Source: Candidatus Methylomirabilota bacterium (GTDB lineage: Bacteria > Methylomirabilota > Methylomirabilia > Rokubacteriales > CSP1-6). From it: a stretch of 57,543 nucleotides of DNA. The DNA lies in the NCBI GenBank assembly GCA_046727155.1, contig JBKPCB010000063.1, positions 1 through 57,543 of the forward strand. The letters run 5' to 3'. Below, piece after piece: positions 22,038 to 43,371 of the stretch. Position numbers and translations under genes: made by a program. Position 1 is the first letter of the stretch. Every line of letters begins with the position of its first letter. The notes under the pieces are model-generated. The model was not told the origin of the DNA. It ran no database searches and was given only the letters and a program-made list of their open reading frames with translations.

Positions 22038-23854
<1,817 letters not shown>

Positions 23855-23858
<4 letters not shown>

Positions 23859-24544
23859 GGCGCCGGCTCCAGACGATACCCGACGCTCTTCACCGTGCTG
23901 ATGCGCTGGCCTTCGCCGCCCAGCTTCACGCGCAGCCGCCGGACATGCACGTCGACAGTACGGGATTCGATCTCACTGGCGGCCGCGTATCCCCAGACCC
24001 GGTCCAGCAGAAACTCGCGCGAGAGCACGCGGCCCTCTGCTTCCGCGAGCGCGCGCAGCAAGTCGAATTCCTTCGGCGTGAGCTGGACGGGCCTCTCGCC
24101 TACCGAGACGATGTGCCGGCCGGGATCGATGCTGAGCCGGCCCGTGACAATGCGCTCGGCTCCGGCCGGCGGCCGCGCGCGCCTGAGCACGGCCCGAACG
24201 CGCGCCACGACCTCCTTCGGGGAGAATGGCTTGACGATGTAGTCGTCGGCGCCGAGCTCGAGGCCCAGGATGCGGTCGACTTCGTCGCCCTTGGCGGTGA
24301 GCATCACGATGGGCAGCGCAGCAGTGGCGGCCTCGCGGCGCAGGCGCCGGCAGACCTCGAGGCCGTCCAGCTCGGGCAGCATGATGTCGAGAAGGATCAG
24401 GTCCGGGGGCGAGGCCTTGACGTGGCGGAGCGCGTCGGCTCCGGTGCGCGACGTGGAGACCTGATAGCCTTCGCGCTCGAGGTGGAAGGCCAGCAGGTCC
24501 CGGATGTCGGCCTCGTCTTCGACGATGAGCACCCGGCTCGTCAT
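23855..24544 (-). CDS. phoB: PhoB/PhoP-family response regulator (cognate of phoR)
   Basis: VEDE, LLDIMLP, GADDYIVKPFSP, RTVDVHVRRLRVKL; ATGA overlap with phoR. Confidence 0.9.
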
Positions 24545-24556
24545 GCAGGCGCTATC

Positions 24557-25594
24557 TTACCAGCGCCGGGTTTCTCCCAGCCTGAAGATCCAGGCGCGCT
24601 CTGGCTCGATACCGCGGCGGCGGGCCTCGGCCACCATCCGCACTGGCGGCTCGTCGAGCGGCTCTTCGGCCATGTCGAAGGTGCCCCAGTGAATTCCCAG
24701 GAGAATGCGGCCGCGGAGATCAAGAAAGGCCTGCACCGCCTCCTCGGGACTCGTGTGCACCGGTCTCATGATCTCGGCCGGCACGTAGGCGCCGATGGCG
24801 ATCGCGGCCAAGTCGAAGGGGCCGAATCGCTCGCCCGCCTCCTTGAAGCCGGCGAAATATCCGCTGTCGCCGCCGAAGAAGAGCCGGCGGTCGACCCCCA
24901 GGATGGCCCACGAGCCCCAGAGCCGCGTATTGCCGTCAAGGAGAGTGCGCTGGGAGAAATGCTGGGCCGGCACGCAGACGAAGCGGACCCCGCGAAGCTC
25001 ATGGCTCTGCCACCAGTCCAGCTCGGTCACGCGCGTCATGCCGTTCTCCGCGAACCACACCTTGAGCCCCAGCGGCACGAGAAAGAGTGGGTCGTGGGCC
25101 GCGGCCAGGCGCTTCACCGTTTCGAGATCCAGGTGATCGTAGTGGTCGTGGGAGATCATGACGACATCGATGCGCGGCAGATCCTCGAAGGCGAGCCCCG
25201 GCGCATTCAGCCGGCGCGGGCCGGCCCAGGACAGCGGACTGGCGCGCCGGCTCCAATTGGGATCCGTGAGCAGGTTGAGGCCGTCCAGCTGGACGAGGAG
25301 CGTCGAATGCCCGATCCAGGTGATGCTCGGGTTCTGGCCGCCGGCGCGGAGCGCGCTGCCGTCATTGGCGACGCGTGGAGCCTCGAACTCCCGCGTCGTC
25401 GTCACCGAGTGCCACGCCCGCCGAATGAAGAAGCTCCACCGCGTCCAGCCTTCCGGCCGGCTGAACGTGGGGTTGACGTTCCGGAAGCCGCCCTCGACGT
25501 GATGGAGCGGCTGGCCCGGCAGCGGCTCGGTGCCGATCGTGGCACAGCCGGCCGGCAGAATGAGCAGCAGGAGGAGCGTGGCGCAAGCCCGCAT
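24557..25594 (-). CDS. MBL-fold metallohydrolase (NAPE-PLD/RomA-like), predicted lipoprotein
   Basis: Lipobox LPAGC; TWIGHST, SHDHYDHLD, PAQHFSQR, GDSGY, IHWGTF. Confidence 0.87.
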   Translation of the reverse strand: MRACATLLLLLILPAGCATIGTEPLPGQPLHHVEGGFRNVNPTFSRPEGWTRWSFFIRRAWHSVTTTREFEAPRVANDGSALRAGGQNPSITWIGHSTLLVQLDGLNLLTDPNWSRRASPLSWAGPRRLNAPGLAFEDLPRIDVVMISHDHYDHLDLETVKRLAAAHDPLFLVPLGLKVWFAENGMTRVTELDWWQSHELRGVRFVCVPAQHFSQRTLLDGNTRLWGSWAILGVDRRLFFGGDSGYFAGFKEAGERFGPFDLAAIAIGAYVPAEIMRPVHTSPEEAVQAFLDLRGRILLGIHWGTFDMAEEPLDEPPVRMVAEARRRGIEPERAWIFRLGETRRW

Positions 25595-25636: not shown

Positions 25637-25915
25637 TCAGCGCGCGCTCTTGCCGTTCTGCCCCGCCGGCGGCAGCAGCCCGAGCAACCGCAGGCGCTTC
25701 CGCAGCGTATTGCGGTTGATCCCGAGCAGGCGGGCGGCTTTGAGCTGATTGCCGCCTGACAGCTCGAGGGCCTGGCGCAGCAGCGGCAGCTCCACCCGCG
25801 CCATGACGCTGCGGTAGAGCCGCCCGCCTTCTGCGCCCGCGGCCTCGCGAACCAGGGGCGGAAGCGCGGCGGTAACGAGCCGCTCGAACTCTTCCGTCCC
25901 GGAGCGATCGCTCAT
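25637..25915 (-). CDS. Stand-alone Fis/NtrC-C-terminal-type HTH protein (92 aa)
   Basis: SD GAGGAGG; LYRSVMARVELPLLRQALELSGGNQLKAARLLGINRNTLRKRL matches the HTH_8 pattern; no AAA+ or REC domain. Confidence 0.85.
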   Translation of the reverse strand: MSDRSGTEEFERLVTAALPPLVREAAGAEGGRLYRSVMARVELPLLRQALELSGGNQLKAARLLGINRNTLRKRLRLLGLLPPAGQNGKSAR

Positions 25916-25939
25916 GTCAACCTCCTCGAACCCAGCGTA

Positions 25940-25975
25940 GAGAAGACAGTAAAGGGCGCCTGTTGGGGCGCCCTT
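25940..25975 (-). terminator. Intrinsic terminator/attenuator in the leader of the HTH gene
   Basis: Minus strand AAGGGCGCC-ccaaca-GGCGCCCTT followed by TACTGTCTTCTC. Confidence 0.72.
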
Positions 25976-26006
25976 GCCTCCAGCCCGGTGACCGCGCTGT
26001 CCCGGG
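25967..26006 (-). promoter_or_regulatory. ANTAR-type dual hexaloop RNA motif; P2 overlaps the terminator 5' arm
   Basis: P1 CCCGG-GAC[AGCGCG]GTC-A-CCGGG (25984-26006); P2 GGC[AAGGGC]GCC (25967-25978); both loops have A1 and G4. Confidence 0.75.
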
Positions 26007-26025
26007 CAGATATAAGGATGATGTC

Positions 26026-26041
26026 AGCAAAGCGTGTGCCG
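26026..26041 (-). promoter_or_regulatory. sigma54 -24/-12 promoter of the HTH gene
   Basis: CGGCAC-ACGCT-TTGCT; near-consensus IHF site AATCAA-CCGC-TTC at 26059-26071. Confidence 0.78.
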
Positions 26042-26103
26042 CCGCACAGAGTGAATTAAATCAACCGCTTCAACAGGCGGGGCTCGGCCAACTGGCCGGC
26101 GGA

Positions 26104-26140
26104 TGCCGAAGATCTAGGCATGATGACTACAACTTGCGCA
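26104..26140. promoter_or_regulatory. Pair of 17-bp NtrC-like enhancer palindromes
   Basis: TGCCGAAGATCTAGGCA (26104-26120) and TGACTACAACTTGCGCA (26124-26140). Confidence 0.65.
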
Positions 26141-27056
26141 GCCCGAGCGGGGGGAGATCGAGCAATCGCCGGCGGCAGCCGGCCCAGAGAGTATTCACGC
26201 ACATCGCGAGAGCCGGCGCCGACGGGCAAAGCAGACGCGCGAGCAGGCCGCCGCGCCCGAGCGCCGTCACACCGACGCTGCAGCCGGTATCGCGCTCGGC
26301 CAGCGCCGCCGACAACTCCACTGCGAGCGCGGCCCAGCCCTCGCGCGCCGGCGCGATCGTGACAAACGTGGCGAGGTACGCGTGCCCTTCGGCCCCTCCG
26401 AGGCCATCCCAGCCGCGGGCGCCGCTCAGCACCGAGCGCTCGCGGAGCAGGAGCCCCCGAGTGTCCCGGACGGTCATGGCCGTATCCAGCCCGGCAAACT
26501 GCCACGCTTCACCGCGCGCAGCGCGTCCGACCGCCCACGCATCAACGGCGATGACGATGCCGCCCGGAGCGAGGGTCACCTCGATCCGCTGCTCGAGCCG
26601 CGCTCCCGGCGATGGGATCAGATGATCCGGAAGGTACTCGAGGACGGCATCCTCTCCGACCTCGGCAGTGAAACGCTGAACGGCGCTCGGGCCCATGCTC
26701 CGGTAGACGCGGGTGGCGGCGGGAGTGGTGAGGCAAACGCGGCTGCCGGAGCCGAGCGTGACGCGGGTGTCGAGCACGTCCCCGCCCAGAATCCCCCCCG
26801 TGGGGTTCAGGAGCATGAGGGTGATACCGCCGGTGTCATCGAGGTCCATCGGCTCGAGCGCCTGCAGCGGCAGGGTGAAGCGTCGCTCGGTCAGGACCGT
26901 CCGGTCGCTACGCTGCTCGAAGCCGAGGCGCAGGAAACCATCGCGCCCGACCCGGCCCGGCGCGGCGCCCTGCTCAGGGCTCGAAGAGCAGCTCCCGGCG
27001 GATCCAGCCGACCACGGCGTCGACGCCGGTGCCGTCCCGGAGATTGGTGAAGACAA
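26127..27056 (-). CDS. ureD: Urease accessory protein UreD (start uncertain)
   Basis: [46 protein letters not shown] end; last gene of ure operon; only a TTG start overlapping ureG is available. Confidence 0.88.
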
Positions 27057-28784: not shown

Positions 28785-30500
28785 CTAAAACAGATAGTAC
28801 CGTTGCGCCATCGGTAATACCCGCGCCGGTTCGCAGGTCAGCAGCTGCCCGTCTGCGCGAACTTCGTACGTCTCCGCATCAACTTCCATCCGTGGGCAGT
28901 AATCGTTGTGGACCATGGCCTTCTTGGTGAGCCCGCGGCACCCGCCGACGGCAACCGTTCGCTTCCGGAGGCCGAGCCGCGCCCCCACGCGATCTTCCGC
29001 CGCCGCCTTGGACAGAAAGGTCACCGACGTGGAGTATACGGCGCCGCCAAAGGACGCGAACATGGGCCGGTGGCGCACCGGTTGGGGCGTCGGGATCGAG
29101 GCATTGGGATCGCCCATCGCCGCCGTCACGATGAGCCCGCTCTTGAGCACCATCTCGGGCTTGACGCCGAAGAAGGCCGGTTTCCATAGCACCAGATCCG
29201 CGAGCTTGCCCCGCTCGACCGAGCCGACCTCACGTGCGATTCCGTGGGAGATCGCGGGATTGATCGTGTACTTGGCGACGTAGCGCTTGGCCCGGACATT
29301 GTCGCTCTTCCCGTCGCCCTTGAGCGGACCACGCTGGCGCTTCATCTTGTCCGCGGTCTGCCAGGTGCGCGTGATGACCTCGGCGATGCGCCCCATGGCC
29401 TGAGAGTCGGACGACAGCATGCTGATGGCCCCCAAGTCGTGGAGCACGTCCTCGGCCGCGATGGTCTCCGCTCGGATGCGGGACTCGGCGAAGGCCAGGT
29501 CCTCGGGGATCTTGGGGTTGAGATGGTGGCACACCATGAGCATGTCGAGATGCTCGTCCATGGTGTTCACCGTGAAGGGCATGGTCGGGTTCGTGGAAGA
29601 CGGCAGGCAATTGGGCTCACCGCAGACGCGGATGATGTCGGGGGCGTGGCCGCCGCCCGCGCCTTCCGTGTGGTAGGTGTGGATGGTCCGCCCCTTGAAC
29701 GCGCGGATGGATTCTTCGACGAAGCCCGCCTCGTTCAGCGTGTCGGTGTGTATGGCGACCTGAACGTCCATCTCCTCGGCCACAGAAAGACAGGCGTCGA
29801 TGGCCGCGGGCGTGGTTCCCCAATCCTCGTGCAGCTTGAGCCCGATGGCGCCGGCCTCGACTTGCTCGCGCAATGGGCCAGCGTGCGAGGCATTGCCCTT
29901 GCCGAGGAAGCCGAGGTTGATGGGCAGGCCATCGGAGGCCTCGAGCATCCGCTGGATATTCCACGCCCCCGCCGAGCACGTCGTGGCATTGGTGCCCGTG
30001 GCCGGCCCGGTGCCACCGCCGATCAATGTCGTGAGGCCGGCCGACAGCGCCTCGTCGATGAGCTGGGGACAGATGAAATGGATATGGCTGTCGATGCCGC
30101 CGGCGGTGATGATCTTTCCCTCGCCGGCAATGACCTCCGTCGAGGCGCCGATCACCATGCCCGGAGTCACACCCGCCATGATGTCGGGATTGCCCGCCTT
30201 GCCGATGCCCACGATGCGGCCGTCGCGGACCCCGATATCGGCCTTGACGATGCCCCAGTGATCCAGGATCAGCGCATTGGTAATGACCAGGTCGAGGGCG
30301 CCGGCGGCCCTCGTGGCGCGCGCCGACTGCCCCATGCCATCGCGGATCACCTTGCCGCCGCCGAACTTGACCTCGTCGCCGTAGACGGTGAAATCCTTCT
30401 CGACTTCGATGAACAGCTCGGTATCGGCCAGGCGCACGCGATCGCCGACCGTCGGCCCGTAGAGATCCGCGTACTGGCGGCGGGGCAGCCTGAGGCTCAT
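28785..30500 (-). CDS. ureC: Urease subunit alpha
   Basis: [62 protein letters not shown]. Confidence 0.99.
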
Positions 30501-32697: not shown

Positions 32698-33824
32698 GGC
32701 CGGGTCACCTCGGCCGCGCCGGCGCCCTCGGCGCGGCGGGCGGTCGCCTTCATCCGGCCCCCGAAGACCCACGCGATCAGCCGCTGGCAGCTGCCCACCA
32801 CACCGTCGGGCAGGAAGAGGACCACGCTGACGAACAGGCCGCCCAACACGAACAGCCACAGGTCCGGATAGTTCGTGGTGAGAATACTCTGCAGCCAACT
32901 GACCCCCACGGCGCCGACCACCGGCCCCAGCAACGTTCCCCGTCCGCCCACCGCCACCCAGATGATCATCTCGATGGAGGGCAGCACCCCGATCTTGGCC
33001 GGCGTGATGATGCCGACCTGGGGGACGTAGAGCGCGCCGGCGACACCTGCCAGCACCGCCGACACCACGAACACGAATACCTTGAAGGCCGCCGGCGAAT
33101 ACCCGGAGAAGAGCACTCGAGTCTCGCTGTCCCGAATGGCGACCAGCACCTTGCCCGCCGGCGACGCGATGATCCAGCGGCAGAGCAGGTACGCGCCGCA
33201 GAGGCACAGCGCCGTCGTCAGATAGAGGGCCCGCTGTGTGCGGGGATCGTTCAGCGTGAAGCCGAACACGCTCTTGAAGCCGGAGAGGCCGTTGGTGCCG
33301 CCCAGGTTCATCGCGTTCCGATTGAACATGAGCCACGCGGAGAGAGCGAGCGCCTGCGTGATGATCGAAAAGTAGACGCCGCGGATCCGGCTGCGAAAGG
33401 TCAGGAAGCCGAAGATGCCCGCCACGATGGCGGGAACGGCGAGCACCGCGAACAGCGTGAACGTCCCGCTGTAGAACGGCTTCCAGAACAGCGGCAATTC
33501 GGTCACCTGGTTCCACACCATGAAGTCGGGGAGCACGTCCCGGTAGACGCCCTGGGTGCCGATCTCGAGCATGAGGTGCATGCCCATCGCGTAGGCGCCC
33601 AGCCCGAAAAAGACGCCGTGTCCCAGCGACAGCACGCCCGTGTAGCCCCAGATGAGATCGATGCCGAGCGCGAGGATCGCGTAGGCGAGGAACTTGCCGA
33701 ACAGGTTCAGGGTGAAATCGCTCACCCGCATGGGCGAGGCGGCGGGCAGCGCGTTGAGAACCGGCAGCACGATCACCAGGCCGGCCGCAGCGATCAACAG
33801 AAGCCAGCGCTCACGAGTCCGCAT
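32694..33824 (-). CDS. urtC: Urea ABC transporter permease UrtC
   Basis: WGYTGVLSLGHG, LPDFMVWN, GVYFSIITQAL, WVAVGGRG. Confidence 0.94.
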   Translation of the reverse strand: MRTRERWLLLIAAAGLVIVLPVLNALPAASPMRVSDFTLNLFGKFLAYAILALGIDLIWGYTGVLSLGHGVFFGLGAYAMGMHLMLEIGTQGVYRDVLPDFMVWNQVTELPLFWKPFYSGTFTLFAVLAVPAIVAGIFGFLTFRSRIRGVYFSIITQALALSAWLMFNRNAMNLGGTNGLSGFKSVFGFTLNDPRTQRALYLTTALCLCGAYLLCRWIIASPAGKVLVAIRDSETRVLFSGYSPAAFKVFVFVVSAVLAGVAGALYVPQVGIITPAKIGVLPSIEMIIWVAVGGRGTLLGPVVGAVGVSWLQSILTTNYPDLWLFVLGGLFVSVVLFLPDGVVGSCQRLIAWVFGGRMKATARRAEGAGAAEVTRP

Positions 33825-35499
33825 AGCGTCCCTTCGCCGCGAACAGACCCGACGGACGGCGCTGGATGAACAGGATTACGAAGACGAGGATGAGGACCTT
33901 GCCGAACACGGCGCCCATGGAGGGCTCGATGATCTTGTTCAGGCCGCCGATTCCCACCGCGGCCAGGATGCTGCCCAGCAGCTTGCCGACGCCGCCCGTG
34001 ACCACCACCATGAACGAATCGACGATGTAGTTCTGTCCCAGCTCCGGACCTACATTGCCGATCTGGGTCAGCGCGCAGCCGGCCAGCCCGGCCAGGCCGG
34101 CGCCCAGGGCGAAGGTCAACGCATCCACGCGCCGCGCGCGCACGCCGAGCGAGGCCGCCATGCCGCGGTTCTGGGTGACGGCGCGGATGCGCAGGCCCGC
34201 ATCCGACCGAAACAGGAGCAGGTACATCCCGGCGACACAGACGGTTGCCAGGCCGATGATGAACAGCCGGTTGTACGGCAGCTGGACGCCGATCATGACC
34301 GGGATGCCGCCCGACAGCCACCGGGGCGCGGTCACGTCCACGTTGGCCGCGCCGAACCACACGCGCAGCCCCTGCTGGATGATCAGGCTCACGCCCCAGG
34401 TCAGGAGCAGGGTTTCCAGTGGCCGCCCGTAGAGGAAGCGGATGATCCCGCGCTCGAGTACGAGGCCGGCGCTGCCCGCCACCAGGAATGACACCGGCAG
34501 CGCCACCAGAAAGTAATAGTCGAACGAGCCAGGCAGGTTCGCCGAAAACCAGTTCTGGGTCACGAAGGTCGCATACGCGCCGAGCGCCATGAGCTCGCCG
34601 TGCGCCATATTGATGACGCCCATGAGGCCGAAGATGATGGCCAGCCCCAATGCCATCAGGAGCAGGATGGACGACAGCGACAGGCCCTGGAAGCCGATCT
34701 CGATGGCCTGGGTCAGCAGTCCCCAGCGCTCGATTCGTTTGATGGCGTCGCTCGCCGCCTGCTGGAGCGGGGCTGGCGCTTGAGGATCGCCGATGAGCTG
34801 GTAGAGACGCTCGACGGCATTGGCGCTCTTGAGCTCACCGAGCCGGCGCGCCGCGAGCACGCGCTCGGCCTCACTACCCTGACGCAGCTGGATCAGCGCC
34901 ATGCCTTCGTCGATGGCGTGACGGACCCAGCGGTCTTGCTCCTTGGCCAGCGCGTCGGTGAGGGCAGGAAGCCCGGAAGGATCGCCGGCGAAGCCCATCT
35001 TGGTGGCCGCGGCCCGCCGCACGGCCGGGTCCGGATTCGCAAGGTCGCTCTGGCCCGAGAAGGCGTCGATGAGCGGCCTGATCGCCAGTCTCAGGCTTCG
35101 CCCCGCCGATACTTCTTGAAGACTCGAGAGATCCACGAGCAGCGGCTTGCCGTCGGCGCCCGTGAGCGGCTCTCGTCCATAGGCGCTGAACAGCGGCACC
35201 AGGGTCTTGTCGCTCTCGGAGACCTTGTCCCCGACGATCACCGTCTCTTTCTTGCCTCCCGGCAGACTCCGAACGTAGACGCTGCCCTCGCGCAGGGCCT
35301 CGAGCAATGGCAGGATCTTTCGATCGGCCGTCTTGCCAAGCGCCACCGCCGCCCCTTCCTGCACGGCGGCGTCGCTCGAGGCGACGTCCGCGATATGCCT
35401 CGCGATCTCTGGCGCCGGAGCCGGAGGCGCGCCCTGCGCGGCTGCCGGGGCGGCGAGCCCCGGCAGCAACGCGAGCGCGAGCAGCAGACGCGTGAACAC
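33811..35499 (-). CDS. urtB: Urea ABC transporter permease UrtB with N-terminal periplasmic HEAT-like extension
   Basis: Signal peptide, HEAT-like helices (DPAVRRAAA, DRWVRHA), then FGLMGVINMAHGE, RPLETLL, VDSFMVVV; GTG start inferred. Confidence 0.9.
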   Translation of the reverse strand: MFTRLLLALALLPGLAAPAAAQGAPPAPAPEIARHIADVASSDAAVQEGAAVALGKTADRKILPLLEALREGSVYVRSLPGGKKETVIVGDKVSESDKTLVPLFSAYGREPLTGADGKPLLVDLSSLQEVSAGRSLRLAIRPLIDAFSGQSDLANPDPAVRRAAATKMGFAGDPSGLPALTDALAKEQDRWVRHAIDEGMALIQLRQGSEAERVLAARRLGELKSANAVERLYQLIGDPQAPAPLQQAASDAIKRIERWGLLTQAIEIGFQGLSLSSILLLMALGLAIIFGLMGVINMAHGELMALGAYATFVTQNWFSANLPGSFDYYFLVALPVSFLVAGSAGLVLERGIIRFLYGRPLETLLLTWGVSLIIQQGLRVWFGAANVDVTAPRWLSGGIPVMIGVQLPYNRLFIIGLATVCVAGMYLLLFRSDAGLRIRAVTQNRGMAASLGVRARRVDALTFALGAGLAGLAGCALTQIGNVGPELGQNYIVDSFMVVVTGGVGKLLGSILAAVGIGGLNKIIEPSMGAVFGKVLILVFVILFIQRRPSGLFAAKGRYADS

Positions 35500-35507
35500 G
35501 ACCCTAG

Positions 35508-36806
35508 TTAGGCTTTCTTCTGGTAGGTACCCTTCTCTTTGACCCAGTCGCAACCCTTGTCGGGGCTCGTGTACTTGCTCCATGGCTCGGCTTTGACCAG
35601 GCCTTTCGACCGGGAAACAACCTTGAACTGGCCGTCCTTGAGGATCTCGCCGATCAATACCGGCTTGTAGGTGTGGTGGTTCGCCTCGTCCAACTTGATC
35701 TTGCCGCCGGGCGCCAGGAATTCCTGGCCGTAGACGGCTTTGCGCACGGCGTCCACGTCAAAGCTCTTGGCCTTCTCGGCCGCCTGCTTCCAGATGTAAA
35801 CGCCGAAATAGGCCGCCTCCATCGGATCGTCGGTGACGCGCTTGTCACCACCGGGCAGATTGTGCTTCTTGGCGTAGGCCTTGAACGACTGCACGAACTT
35901 TTTGTTCTGAGGCGTGTCGACCGACTGGTAGTAATTCCAGGCGGCCAGATGGCCAACCAGCGAGGAGGTGTCCATGCCGCGCAGCTCGTCCTCGGCCACG
36001 CTGAAGGCCATGATCGGCGCGTTCTCCGAGCGCAGCCCCTGGTTGGCGAACTCTTTGTAGAAGGGCACGTTGCTGTCGCCGTTGATCGTCGAGAGTACAG
36101 CGGCGCTGCCGCCCGAGGCGAAGCGCTTGATCTTGCCGACGATGGTCTGGTAGTCCTGGTGGTTGAAGGGCGTGTACTCCTCAGCGATGGAGTCGGCGGG
36201 GATGCCCTTGGCCAGCAGGAAGGCCCGCAGGATCTTATTGGCCGTGCGCGGGAAGACGTAGTCGGTGCCCAACAGGTAGAATTTCTTGTACCCCCCACCT
36301 TCCCTGGACATCAGGTACTCCGCCGCAGGGATCAGCTGCTGGTTCGGCGTCGCGCCCGTGTAGAAGACATTGCGCGAGCATTCCTCACCCTCGTACTGGA
36401 CGGGATAGAAGAGCAGGCCGTTGTTGTTCTCGAAGACCGGCAGCACCGACTTCCGGCTCACCGAGGTCCAGCATCCGAATACGACGGCGACCTTGTCCTG
36501 CAACAGCAGCTGCTTGGCCTTCTCGGCGAAGAGGTCCCAGTTCGAGGCCGGATCCACCACGACGGGATCGATCTTCTTGCCCATGACCCCGCCCTTGGCA
36601 TTGATCTCCTCGACGGCCATCAGCACGACGTCGCGGAGTGAGACCTCGCTGATGGCCATGGTGCCGCTGAGCGAGTGCAGCACGCCGATCTTGACGGAGC
36701 CGCCTCCCTGCGCCCTGATGATGGCGGGGAAGCCGAGGCCCGCGGCGGCGCCGACTCCAACTGCCGCCGAGGTTTTGAGAAAGTCCCTGCGTGAAAGCCC
36801 TTCCAT
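35508..36806 (-). CDS. urtA: Urea ABC transporter substrate-binding protein UrtA (Tat-exported)
   Basis: SD AAAGGAG; SRRDFLK Tat motif; LHSLSGTMAISE, GCWTSVSRK, FYPVQYEG, TINGDSN, AWNYYQS. Confidence 0.96.
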   Translation of the reverse strand: MEGLSRRDFLKTSAAVGVGAAAGLGFPAIIRAQGGGSVKIGVLHSLSGTMAISEVSLRDVVLMAVEEINAKGGVMGKKIDPVVVDPASNWDLFAEKAKQLLLQDKVAVVFGCWTSVSRKSVLPVFENNNGLLFYPVQYEGEECSRNVFYTGATPNQQLIPAAEYLMSREGGGYKKFYLLGTDYVFPRTANKILRAFLLAKGIPADSIAEEYTPFNHQDYQTIVGKIKRFASGGSAAVLSTINGDSNVPFYKEFANQGLRSENAPIMAFSVAEDELRGMDTSSLVGHLAAWNYYQSVDTPQNKKFVQSFKAYAKKHNLPGGDKRVTDDPMEAAYFGVYIWKQAAEKAKSFDVDAVRKAVYGQEFLAPGGKIKLDEANHHTYKPVLIGEILKDGQFKVVSRSKGLVKAEPWSKYTSPDKGCDWVKEKGTYQKKA

Positions 36807-37061: not shown

Positions 37062-37661
37062 TCAGCGGGCAGAGCGAGGCTGGCCGAGCCCGTCGCTCAG
37101 CAAGAGAGCCTGGGCAACCTCGGCGATCGGCTTGCGGGTGTCCATCGCGGTCTTCTGGAGCCGTCGATAGGCCTCCGGCTCGGTGAGCCCGAGCCGCTGA
37201 ATCAAGAGGCCCTTGGCGCGATCGATGGTCTTCCGTGACTCGAGCTTGCGCTTGAGCGCCTCGTTTTCCTGCCGCACGGCCTCCATCTCGCGGAAGCGCG
37301 ATACGGCCAGATCGAGCGCCGGCCCGAGCTCCGGGTGACGCAGCGGCTTGACGAGGAAGCCGAGGACGCCCGCCTCGACGGCGCGGGCCGCAACGGCGGC
37401 GTCCGTGCGGCTCGTCAGCAACACGAGCGGGCATGGAGCCGACGCCATGATCCGCCGCGCAGCCTCGAGCCCATCGCCGTCGGGGAGCCCCACCGCCAAC
37501 ACCGCCACATCCGGGTGCAGCCGCTCAACCAATGGCACGGCGTCCTCGAGGCGGCTGCCGTGACCCACCACCTCACCGCCCTGGAGCGCCACCGCCTCGA
37601 CGATGGCTGAGCGCGAAGGGGCATGGTCGTCCACGATCAGCACCCGCCACCGTGGCTTCAT
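37062..37661 (-). CDS. AmiR/NasT-type pseudo-receiver + ANTAR RNA-binding antiterminator
   Basis: REC-like N-terminus (LIVDDH, FLVKP) with Ala at the phospho-Asp position; ANTAR LESRKTIDRAKGLLIQRLGLTEPEAYRRLQKTAMD. Confidence 0.92.
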   Translation of the reverse strand: MKPRWRVLIVDDHAPSRSAIVEAVALQGGEVVGHGSRLEDAVPLVERLHPDVAVLAVGLPDGDGLEAARRIMASAPCPLVLLTSRTDAAVAARAVEAGVLGFLVKPLRHPELGPALDLAVSRFREMEAVRQENEALKRKLESRKTIDRAKGLLIQRLGLTEPEAYRRLQKTAMDTRKPIAEVAQALLLSDGLGQPRSAR

Positions 37662-37674
37662 GGCTTGGTGATCG

Positions 37675-37690
37675 AGCAAACATGGTGCCA
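37675..37690 (-). promoter_or_regulatory. sigma54 promoter of the ANTAR gene (consensus)
   Basis: TGGCAC-CATGT-TTGCT, ending 13 nt before the ATG. Confidence 0.88.
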
Positions 37691-37741
37691 GCAGCAAACG
37701 TGGGAAAAGCGGGGTATTCGCGGCGCGGGGGCGAGAGGACC

Positions 37742-37787
37742 TGCTCACGCGGCAAGCAAGCAGACTCGAACGCCCAGCGTATGGGCA
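37742..37787. promoter_or_regulatory. Pair of 17-bp NtrC-like enhancer palindromes upstream of the ANTAR gene
   Basis: TGCTCACGCGGCAAGCA (37742-37758) and CGCCCAGCGTATGGGCA (37771-37787); 29-bp spacing. Confidence 0.68.
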
Positions 37788-42009: not shown

Positions 42010-43371
42010 TTAGTTGGCCCGCCGCTGGGGGATGCCGTGGCGGCGCATTTTCGAATACAGGGTCGGACGACGTAGTCCGAGCAGCGCCGCTGCGGCCTGC
42101 TTGTTCCAGCCCGTGGATTCCAACGCCCGAACAATGGACACGCGCTCGATCTCCTCGAGCGAGCCTGGCGGGGGCGCTGAACCGGCCGCCGAGGCCACCT
42201 CAACCTGGAGCGGTTCGGGCAAGTCGGACAGGGTAATGTCCTGGCCGCGCGCCACCAAGATCCCGCGCTCGATGGCGTGCTCGAGCTCCCGCACATTTCC
42301 CGGCCAGCCATAGGCCAGCAGGCGCCGGTACGCCTCGGGGTCGATTCCCTCGACTGGCCGCCCGTGCTTGGCCGCAAAGCCGCCCAGGAAGGCCTTGGCC
42401 AGCACGGGAATGTCACCCGTGCGCTCCCGCAGCGGGGGAAGCGCCACGGTCACGGTATTGATCCGGAAGTAGAGGTCCTGCCGAAGGCGCCCTTCGCGCA
42501 GCGCCGAATCCGGGTCTCGGTTGGTGGAGCATATGAGTCGGAAGTCGACCGGGACTGAACGGGCCCCGCCCAGGCGGCGGACTGTGTGGTCTTCGAGCAC
42601 TCGCAGGAGCTTGGCCTGAAGGTCTAGCGGCATCTCGGTGATCTCGTCCAGGAGAAGGGAACCGCGATGCGCCTCCTCGAGCAGGCCGGCTTTGTCGGTG
42701 GTGGCGCCGGTAAAGGCGCCCTTGACATGGCCGAAGAGCTCGGACTCGATCAGATCCTTGGGCAGCGCCGCACAGTTGATCTTGATCAGCGGTCCGTCGG
42801 CCCGGTTGCTCCTCGCGTGGACCGCATTGGCCACCAGTTCCTTGCCGGTGCCGCTCTCACCGATGACGAGCACGTTGGCATCGGAGGCAGCCACCGAGTC
42901 GAGCAGGTCGAACACGCGCTTGATCGCCGGCGAGGAGCCCAGCATCTCGCCATAGGCGGAGTGCTCGGCCAGCTTTCGACGCAGGTCGGACGTCTCCGCC
43001 AGGAGCCGCTGGCGCTCGAGCGCCTTGGCCACGAGCATGAGCATCTCCTCCGAGTCGAAGGGCTTGGCGACGAAGTAGAAGGCTCCCTGCTTGGTCGCTT
43101 CCACGGCCTTCGAGATTGAGGAGTGACCGGTCATGATGATCACTTCCATGGAGGGCGCCTTGCCCTTGAGGAGCCGCAGCAGGTGCAGGCCGTCGCCGTC
43201 GGGGAGCACCAGGTCCACCAGGGCCAGCGAGAACTCCCGCTCATCCATCCGAAGCATCGCGCCGACAGTATTAGCCGCCGTATCGACGTCGTAGCCCTGG
43301 GCCTCCAGGGTCATGCGAAGGTTGTCGGCGATGATCGCCTGGTCGTCGACAACGAGAATCCTGGGCTTCAC
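42010..43371 (-). CDS. sigma54-dependent activator, REC-AAA+-HTH (NtrC/AtoC/ZraR family)
   Basis: VDLVLP receiver, GESGTGKE, ESELFGH, GAFTGA, LLDEI, WPGNVREL, C-terminal HTH LGLRRPTLYSK. Confidence 0.95.
   Translation of the reverse strand: MKPRILVVDDQAIIADNLRMTLEAQGYDVDTAANTVGAMLRMDEREFSLALVDLVLPDGDGLHLLRLLKGKAPSMEVIIMTGHSSISKAVEATKQGAFYFVAKPFDSEEMLMLVAKALERQRLLAETSDLRRKLAEHSAYGEMLGSSPAIKRVFDLLDSVAASDANVLVIGESGTGKELVANAVHARSNRADGPLIKINCAALPKDLIESELFGHVKGAFTGATTDKAGLLEEAHRGSLLLDEITEMPLDLQAKLLRVLEDHTVRRLGGARSVPVDFRLICSTNRDPDSALREGRLRQDLYFRINTVTVALPPLRERTGDIPVLAKAFLGGFAAKHGRPVEGIDPEAYRRLLAYGWPGNVRELEHAIERGILVARGQDITLSDLPEPLQVEVASAAGSAPPPGSLEEIERVSIVRALESTGWNKQAAAALLGLRRPTLYSKMRRHGIPQRRAN

Follow-up and report, generated by a model that had tools for sequence, protein, structure and literature searches.

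A small Fis/NtrC-tail-like gene behind a sigma-54 promoter and an ANTAR-type leader in a nitrogen gene block of Methylomirabilota

A gene for a 92-amino-acid (aa) helix-turn-helix (HTH) protein closes a long same-strand block of nitrogen genes in the DNA analyzed here, a stretch of 57,543 nucleotides (nt) from Candidatus Methylomirabilota bacterium (GenBank assembly GCA_046727155.1, contig JBKPCB010000063.1, positions 1 to 57,543; hereafter, the window). The names of the homologues likewise place the source organism in Methylomirabilota. On balance, we consider it probable that this gene (25915..25637; minus strand, as are the features below unless stated otherwise) encodes a Fis/NtrC-tail-like member of a conserved Rokubacteria family that belongs to the nitrogen starvation regulon, with expression driven by sigma-54 and gated by an ANTAR-type antiterminator. 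The control elements, their order and conservation, and the protein family are read from the sequence and from comparisons with relatives. A preliminary description of this DNA had presented the gene as an HTH-only gene, and this was borne out: HTH_8 (residues 39 to 76; 49.8 bits versus a Pfam gathering score of 22) is the sole Pfam family above the cut-off in the protein, which contains neither a receiver domain nor the AAA+ sigma-54 interaction domain (PF00158). The third-codon-position G+C content of the open reading frame (ORF) is 0.88.

The region 5' of the gene is 211 bp long and holds all of the control elements. Its sigma-54 -24/-12 element (cGGCACacgctTTGCT; 26041-26026; predicted transcription start near 26015) fits the rule for such promoters, i.e., GG and GC lie 10 bp apart before a gene in a genome with rpoN (210 bits). 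The consensus context of sigma-54 promoters is TGGCAC-N5-TTGCW. In the window, GGCAY-N5-TTGCW was found three times (0.33 expected; 0 of 100 shuffles reached three), and all three sites precede nitrogen genes, namely, the HTH gene, urtA, and a gene for a REC-ANTAR regulator. Genome-wide, a TGC-N11-GCA dyad was located 30 to 170 bp 5' of 5 of the 30 promoters with this pattern (the HTH gene, urtA, the ANTAR gene, nirA, and a gene on contig C81), compared with 2.4% of random places, and in three of these five (the HTH gene, urtA, and the C81 gene) the dyad starts 79 to 80 bp upstream. The dyad pattern itself was not enriched in the window (9 found versus 21.7 expected).

NtrC-type enhancers consist of 17-bp TGC-N11-GCA dyads, usually at least two, located about 70 to 150 bp upstream. 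The dyad before the HTH gene (TGCCTAGATCTTCGGCA; TGCC-N9-GGCA; 17 bp; 26120-26104, strand-neutral) resembles an upstream activating sequence and starts 80 bp upstream of the promoter GG; it is identical in the sister species of the same genus (genome G001), and TGC-N11-GCA dyads occupy the same place in other relatives. Between the dyad and the promoter lies an AT-rich site resembling the consensus for integration host factor (IHF) (gAAGCGGTTGATT; 26071-26059). Blocks similar to YAANNNNTTGATW occur at the equivalent position in the sister species and in loci L036 to L046, and the genome contains five genes of the HU/IHF family; GGCAANGGCGCC by itself is unspecific (27 copies, mostly in coding sequence). 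We conclude that the enhancer-like dyad, the IHF-like site, and the sigma-54 promoter are real and conserved. The preliminary description had listed two 17-bp palindromes together with an IHF-like site, a -24/-12 promoter, two hexaloop hairpins, an overlapping terminator, and a Shine-Dalgarno sequence; all of these were recovered except the second palindrome, which proved to be a 14-bp GC palindrome (CGGCCA-GT-TGGCCG; 26098-26085, strand-neutral) that is unlike the dyad in sequence, is not conserved in the sister species or in L046, and is probably not functional.

Downstream of the predicted start, the leader carries what is recognizably an ANTAR-type attenuator. The first hairpin (P1; GCCCGG-GAC-AGCGCG-GTC-A-CCGGGC; 26007-25983; -15.8 kcal/mol) and the second hairpin (P2; GGC-AAGGGC-GCC; 25978-25967; -2.8 kcal/mol) both present hexanucleotide loops (AGCGCG and AAGGGC) in which positions 1 and 4 are A and G, respectively. 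A 9-bp perfect inverted repeat (AAGGGCGCC-CCAACA-GGCGCCCTT; 25975-25952; -17.2 kcal/mol), directly followed by a pyrimidine/U-rich tail (TACTGTCTTCTCT; 25951-25939), resembles an intrinsic terminator. Its 5' arm (25975-25967) is formed by the loop and 3' arm of P2, so that P2 and the terminator are mutually exclusive. The published RNA target of ANTAR proteins consists of two short hairpins with A1/G4 hexanucleotide loops, and the 5' base of an intrinsic terminator supplies the second of these hairpins (Ramesh et al. 2012, PMC3369931); the leader has both features. The unconstrained fold of the leader is P1 plus the terminator (stability z = -3.5 versus shuffles), and in this minimum-energy form the Shine-Dalgarno sequence (GAGGAGG; 25927-25921; 5 nt 5' of the ATG) is base-paired.

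Across 5.7 Mb of sequence from both genome strands, the combination of two hexaloop hairpins and an overlapping terminator was seen at 16 places. Among these matches, 4 of which were read in context and the other 12 judged from the printed hairpins, the clear 5'-leader cases were the HTH leader and the leader of a nirA-like (ferredoxin-nitrite reductase) gene on contig C56 (4860-5000, plus strand; L135/L116). Besides a dyad and a sigma-54 promoter (TGGTACgcgggTTGCT), this nirA leader has a terminator and an ANTAR dual hairpin whose loops are ACCGTG and AATGGC, and it represents a textbook leader of the nas type within Methylomirabilota. The nirA leaders of three related genomes (G023, G037, and G035) are built like that of the present genome (G000), with P2 conforming to GGC-(A/G)A(G/T)GG(C/T)-GC(C/T), and the P2 12-mer, exact or with one or two letters changed, is found in these four nirA leaders, in the leader of a cyanate gene cluster in the sister species (see below), and in L046.

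Across five leaders, five of the nine P1 pairs change on both sides, and 86% of the P1 alignment cells can pair (72% in shuffles; 27 to 48% with slid partners), while P2 is invariant. A covariance model built from these five leaders (R1) recovered its two training leaders in this genome at 51 and 49 bits, with the next match (30 bits) in coding-like sequence; in 100 relatives it recovered training sequences, two matches in coding-like sequence, and nothing else. The model generalizes poorly, since it missed the nirA leader of G035. The HTH leader matched no Rfam family (narK RNA, 16.1 bits and E = 2.6, was below the gathering score of 43.2). A REP-like repeat was considered for the intergenic region (215 nt in this comparison) and rejected, as there was no second genomic copy and only chance matches of 20 nt or less.

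The candidate antiterminator is encoded in the same window. The REC-ANTAR regulator ORF (37062-37748; likely ATG at 37661; 37062..37758 with its promoter and dyad) contains the sole ANTAR domain found in the assembly, and pattern scans placed a sigma-54 promoter (37689-37675) and a dyad (37758-37742) before it. An ANTAR gene with its own sigma-54 promoter and dyad suggests a feed-forward cascade, i.e., from activator to antiterminator to target. This promoter lies close to the start codon (both within 37659-37689), with the GG located 27 to 28 nt before the ATG and about 13 to 14 nt between TTGCT and the ATG; the mRNA is thus predicted to be nearly leaderless and to lack a Shine-Dalgarno sequence.

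We compared 21 loci of the HTH subfamily, nine from related genomes and 12 from metagenomes (79% identity at best for the latter). Of the 12 metagenome loci, 11 have a sigma-54 element before the HTH gene, as do four loci from related genomes (L003, L005, L008, and L009) and two loci of other branches (L018 and, by eye, L016). TGC-N11-GCA dyads (often TGCTCA-N5-TGAGCA) and the YAANNNNTTGATW-like block keep their order upstream of this element. Outside this genome, the attenuator was found in the sister species (leader 67% identical over 170 nt; terminator kept with one G-U pair), in one relative of about 93% identity (a contig from two soil DNA runs), and in part in L046 (P2 sequence present, poor P1, no U-tract). 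The 93% relative retains P1, P2, and an unchanged terminator, the single change being at P1 loop position 6. Conservation in relatives, on which the preliminary description had set weight, thus extends to the gene, the dyad, the IHF site, and the promoter, and for the attenuator only to the sister species, the 93% relative, and, partially, L046. On these comparisons, the attenuator layer is specific to this lineage rather than a feature of the family.

A word-indexed search returned 834 homologues of 50 to 161 aa, the best 120 of which are 70 to 100% identical and mostly 92 to 105 aa long. An exhaustive search of representatives gave 3,914 matches (E ≤ 1e-3), and the best 150 of these are mostly small proteins of 80 to 150 aa, with a few full-length activators of 461 to 496 aa. 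In 25 aligned members, an invariant stretch reads GGNQL..LLGINRNTLRKRLR.LGLL (also given as GNQL.AA..LGINRNTLRKRLR.LGLL). The C terminus of NtrC from a relative is 48% identical over 80 aa (this NtrC passes the TIGR01818 cut-off, and its gene follows that of an NtrB-like kinase), the NtrC proteins of a sister family are 51 to 56% identical, and the HTH of the 92-aa protein (GGNQLKAARLLGINRNTLRKRLRLLGL) is almost the same as its counterpart in the NtrC of the phylum (GGNQLRAAALLGINRNTLRKKLRALGL). Escherichia coli Fis is 42% identical over 67 aa (phmmer E = 5e-10), and the solved NtrC DNA-binding domain 1NTC gave an E value of only 0.12. The recognition helix is NtrC/Fis-like, as had been proposed from its motif.

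Fis is a free-standing relative of the NtrC tail, and its origin from NtrC is reportedly the subject of a paper. Fis proper has an N-terminal beta-hairpin arm ahead of helix A. Alignments of the 92-aa protein with Fis begin at Fis residue 31 or 32 (query residue 14 or 15), with only 13 residues preceding, which leaves no room for the 20-residue arm, and the AlphaFold monomer model (pLDDT 82.9) is helical from residue 3, with one straight helix over residues 3 to 52. The top Foldseek matches to this model are all Fis chains, although weak (best E = 3e-3; TM 0.52 to 0.66). In a tree of 71 HTH tails (94 columns; quick search; poorly resolved), 22 small locus proteins group with 10 small representatives (SH-aLRT 93), and the phylum's NtrC tails and E. 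coli Fis fall in a separate clade (83). The preliminary description had named grouping with housekeeping Fis and decay from ntrC as outcomes that would speak against its proposal. The former was not seen in this weakly resolved tree, and the latter was rejected on account of the 834 small homologues and the invariant HTH; the open frame upstream of the 92-aa ORF is only 128 aa. Judged by these relationships, the protein is neither a housekeeping Fis nor a decayed piece of ntrC; it probably adopts the fold shared by Fis and the NtrC C-terminal domain (CTD) and acts as a homodimer. A further proposal, that it serves in trans as the DNA-binding subunit of an activator without an HTH, found no support, as each of the 10 sigma-54 activators located in the assembly has an HTH_8 of its own. 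Elsewhere in the genome, a second small HTH_8 open frame (137 aa; contig C120, 29689-29808, minus strand) lies just 3' of a 470-aa sigma-54 activator, and its tail pairs with that of the neighboring activator (C120, 30609-30728, minus strand; SH-aLRT 99); this frame could represent a further free-standing copy of the DNA-binding tail of an activator.

From the known behavior of such elements, the following sequence of events can be proposed. Under nitrogen starvation, an NtrC-type activator would bind the TGCC-N9-GGCA dyad, which lies some 97 bp before the predicted start, an IHF/HU-type protein would bend the spacer between the dyad and the promoter, and sigma-54 RNA polymerase would initiate near 26015. 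The leader of about 100 nt would fold as P1 plus the terminator, and transcription would stop by default unless the REC-ANTAR regulator engaged the P1/P2 hexaloops and so blocked the terminator. Read-through would yield the HTH protein and probably also a metallo-beta-lactamase (MBL)-fold lipoprotein and PhoB/PhoR-like proteins encoded downstream. The 92-aa protein is predicted to bind NtrC-type dyads because its HTH is almost the same as the one in the phylum's NtrC and, having no AAA+ domain, would damp or reshape sigma-54 activation as a feedback or architectural factor, a step that we propose more cautiously than the preceding ones. On the basis of the same HTH likeness, action as an anti-activator by competition is plausible.

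Several observations weigh against this scheme. The HTH gene is preceded by a single NtrC-type dyad rather than two. The NtrB/NtrC pair of relatives, which adjoins tsaD in L033 to L035, was not found in the assembly (75% complete), where the best match reaches 47% identity, and the sigma-54 activator of the window itself has a different recognition helix. At the RNA level, P1 loop position 1 is G, not A, in the sister species and in the nirA leaders of G023, G035, and G037, and the T-run of the terminator is imperfect, for which reason a standard terminator scan did not call the hairpin at 25975-25952. Reading the remaining 18 of the 21 subfamily loci by eye revealed no attenuator, and when the leader was compared by BLAST with 158 other genomes from the taxonomic family, only the sister species had a homologous one (22 other genomes gave matches, and the 10 short ones inspected were all in coding sequence). 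In eight loci (L036, L037, L039 to L042, L044, and L008), the promoter GG lies only about 27 to 28 nt from the ATG, and the predicted mRNA would have almost no leader and no Shine-Dalgarno sequence. The most conserved linkage is with the downstream MBL/PhoBR-like genes and not with NtrC sites. Finally, within 25983-26271, one contig each from the RNA libraries of two studies (from relatives with about 92% likeness) extends from ureD over the dyad and the promoter; the two stop, without loose ends, at 25983 and 25989, i.e., at the 3' foot of P1, which a DNA contig passes. These ends hint weakly either at read-through out of the urease operon that stops at P1 or at the presence of DNA in the libraries, and P1 might in addition be the point where urease-operon transcripts end.

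The downstream linkage is the basis of another explanation, namely, that the HTH protein is a local regulator that controls, or is needed together with, the MBL lipoprotein and PhoB/PhoR-like genes and connects nitrogen starvation to phosphate or lipid scavenging rather than acting on NtrC enhancers. An MBL homologue lies directly 3' of the HTH gene in 18 of the 21 loci, followed by a PhoB-like gene in the 10 whose flank reaches that far. The upstream neighbor is variable: ureD in 8 of the 21 loci, cynS in 2 (one seen only as a C-terminal tag), and in the remainder an amidase-like gene and a small unnamed gene (both named from their sequences without a Pfam scan) or others, including, in some relatives, a porin behind a fragment of a PII-like (glnB) gene. 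Variable upstream and constant downstream genes point to a conserved unit of promoter, HTH gene, MBL lipoprotein gene, and PhoB/PhoR-like genes, docked behind the local nitrogen-scavenging operon. In the window, a gap of only 42 nt with no terminator separates the HTH gene from the MBL gene, after which come PhoB-like and PnpS/PhoR-like genes, pst genes, and phoU. Contigs from the RNA libraries of two studies (from relatives 92 to 98% alike) cover parts of the HTH gene and span the HTH-MBL junction; all of the records are contigs from relatives with 85 to 98% likeness, and such contigs cannot show a single transcript. The records X17 and X18 leave 25905-25958 uncovered, a gap that carries no weight. 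Co-transcription alone does not prove that the HTH protein regulates its neighbors, and a second subfamily (LRKRCRELGL type) has other downstream genes; we regard the local-regulator explanation as unlikely. The protein might instead be the phylum's analogue of Fis, a general nucleoid-associated protein that bends DNA with low specificity and for which nitrogen sets only the dose. Its sequence is nearer to Fis than to 1NTC, small stand-alone HTH_8 proteins are very common (as among the representatives above), and the best NCBIfam matches are Fis-family models; however, the scores fall below both equivalog cut-offs (54.0 < 99 for NF001659 and 60.5 < 122 for NF002517), the stretch before Fis residue 31 that holds the arm is missing, E. 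coli Fis is not a neighbor in the weakly resolved tree, and a dusB-fis-type context is absent. Fis is under growth-phase control, and a promoter used only in starvation is unlike that. A general role of this kind is, in our estimation, quite improbable.

A different question is where the attenuator came from. It may have belonged to an operon for a cyanate/nitrate-type ABC transporter and cyanase, with the HTH gene as the last member, and loss of the transporter and cyanase genes would have brought it next to the HTH gene in the present genome; this possibility, to which we give a little less than an even chance, concerns origin and is compatible with the preferred reading. In the sister species, the order is ureD, the identical dyad, the IHF-like site, the sigma-54 promoter, P1/P2, the terminator, and then genes for an NMT1_2 binding protein, permease, ATPase, and cyanase, followed by the HTH and MBL genes. 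The cynS gene is directly upstream of the HTH gene in L004, L017, L020, L024, and L045 (L020, one of these five loci and one row of the tree, comes from an unpublished genome, G024, and nothing depends on it), and no cyanase was found in the 75%-complete assembly. On the other hand, L046 and the 93% relative show the order ureD, leader, and HTH gene without cyn genes, so that an insertion of cyn genes in the sister species is equally possible. Since the leader there heads a cyn/nrt-type operon, the "triple control" of the HTH gene that the preliminary description emphasized may be a by-product of gene loss or insertion. It is very improbable, finally, that the motifs are due to chance and that the HTH gene is simply transcribed by read-through from the urease operon: the HTH gene abuts ureD without a gap in L007 and L011, and RNA-library contigs cross the intergenic region from ureD, but the promoter statistics and conservation, and the retention of the leader in the sister species, argue otherwise. 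A broader extension of the preferred reading, i.e., of a sigma-54-driven, ANTAR-gated member of the nitrogen starvation regulon, would be that Methylomirabilota split off an NtrC tail independently of proteobacterial Fis and that the Ntr-induced tail occupies NtrC dyads or forms mixed dimers as a competitive brake or timer, released in this genus only after the ANTAR regulator fires and coupled to the MBL-lipoprotein/PhoBR-like module. We consider this extension improbable.

The upstream neighbor of the HTH gene in the window is ureD (26127..27056; Pfam UreD; stop codon at 26129-26127), the last gene of the urease cluster. The nitrogen block also contains ureABC-EFGD, the urea ABC transporter genes, amtB, glnA, a single-domain receiver gene and a PII gene (both read by eye), and the sigma-54 activator (42010-43371). 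A urea transporter permease (BPD_transp_2; 33811-35583) has an N-terminal extension of HEAT/PBS-lyase repeats. The only Rfam match in the window, 5_ureB_sRNA (30052-30345, plus strand; 97.7 bits), lies antisense within the urease alpha-subunit gene and probably reflects conservation of urease coding sequence rather than a small RNA in Methylomirabilota. On the other side, the MBL-fold (Lactamase_B_2) lipoprotein gene (24557..25594) is a probable operon partner of the HTH gene. Together with the PhoB-like regulator and the PnpS/PhoR-like kinase, it forms a module (22038-25594) that accompanies the small HTH gene in most relatives; in the window this module is followed by a second PhoB-like gene ahead of the pst genes and phoU. 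The linkage may indicate a connection between nitrogen and phosphorus control.

For a soil phylum that is abundant but uncultured, these results open nitrogen control to concrete tests. The members predicted for the regulon (urea uptake, the ANTAR regulator, nirA, and the HTH gene) share one design of dyad, IHF site, and sigma-54 promoter, a subset of them being ANTAR-gated, and the MBL-lipoprotein/PhoB/PhoR linkage hints at nitrogen-phosphorus cross-talk. If the proposed role is true, a starvation-induced, tail-only copy would constitute a simple natural feedback by competition for enhancer sites and would bear on how Fis arose from NtrC; if the protein is merely a local or general DNA-bending factor, it would be an ordinary new HTH member of the Fis family.

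The preliminary description knew of no circuit like this one, a view that does not hold for the regulatory design, which is already known and is found in the nirA leader of the same genome. Klebsiella nasF combines an NtrC/sigma-54 promoter with ANTAR antitermination, and control by Ntr/sigma-54 and an ANTAR antiterminator has also been described for NasT systems (PMC5424462, PMC2995071, PMC10783516). Such control applies to Pseudomonas nirBD as well, and in Geobacter sulfurreducens (GnfL/GnfM-GnfK/GnfR) a sigma-54 master activator acts on the genes of ANTAR response regulators and on their regulon, a subset of which has terminators relieved by the ANTAR protein (PMC2995071). As for the product, the HTH protein belongs to an as yet uncharacterized, conserved Fis/NtrC-tail-like family, and in the literature covered, from which subscription journals were absent, we found no description of a sigma-54 nitrogen regulon with such a tail-only protein among its conserved members. 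The present leader shares with Klebsiella oxytoca nasF (NasR) and with the NasT systems of Pseudomonas and Paracoccus the succession of a sigma-54 promoter, an ANTAR dual hairpin, and a terminator (PMC5424462, PMC2995071, PMC3369931). In contrast to those systems, the controlled gene here encodes a DNA-binding protein instead of an assimilation enzyme or transporter, and the regulator is a REC-ANTAR protein with no NasS or NIT sensor seen beside it. As in the Geobacter Gnf system, the ANTAR gene has its own sigma-54 promoter and dyad; the differences are the phylum, the targets (scavenging of urea, cyanate, and nitrite rather than nif), and that no partner histidine kinase was recognized beside the ANTAR gene. 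With Fis of E. coli and Pseudomonas aeruginosa (PDB 1ETY, 3IV5, and 6M10), the protein shares the stand-alone format of about 90 to 100 aa with a C-terminal HTH_8 and the contact-helix motif GINRxTLRKKL, and Fis chains are its best fold matches; unlike Fis, it has no N-terminal arm region, carries a 12-aa C-terminal tail, falls in a separate clade, and is encoded behind a sigma-54 promoter amid nitrogen genes instead of behind dusB. With the NtrC CTD (TIGR01818; PDB 1NTC), it shares 48 to 56% identity over the whole domain when the NtrC proteins of Methylomirabilota are considered, and an NtrC-type dyad is located in its own promoter, but it falls in a clade of its own made up of small proteins and is not a recent ntrC fragment.

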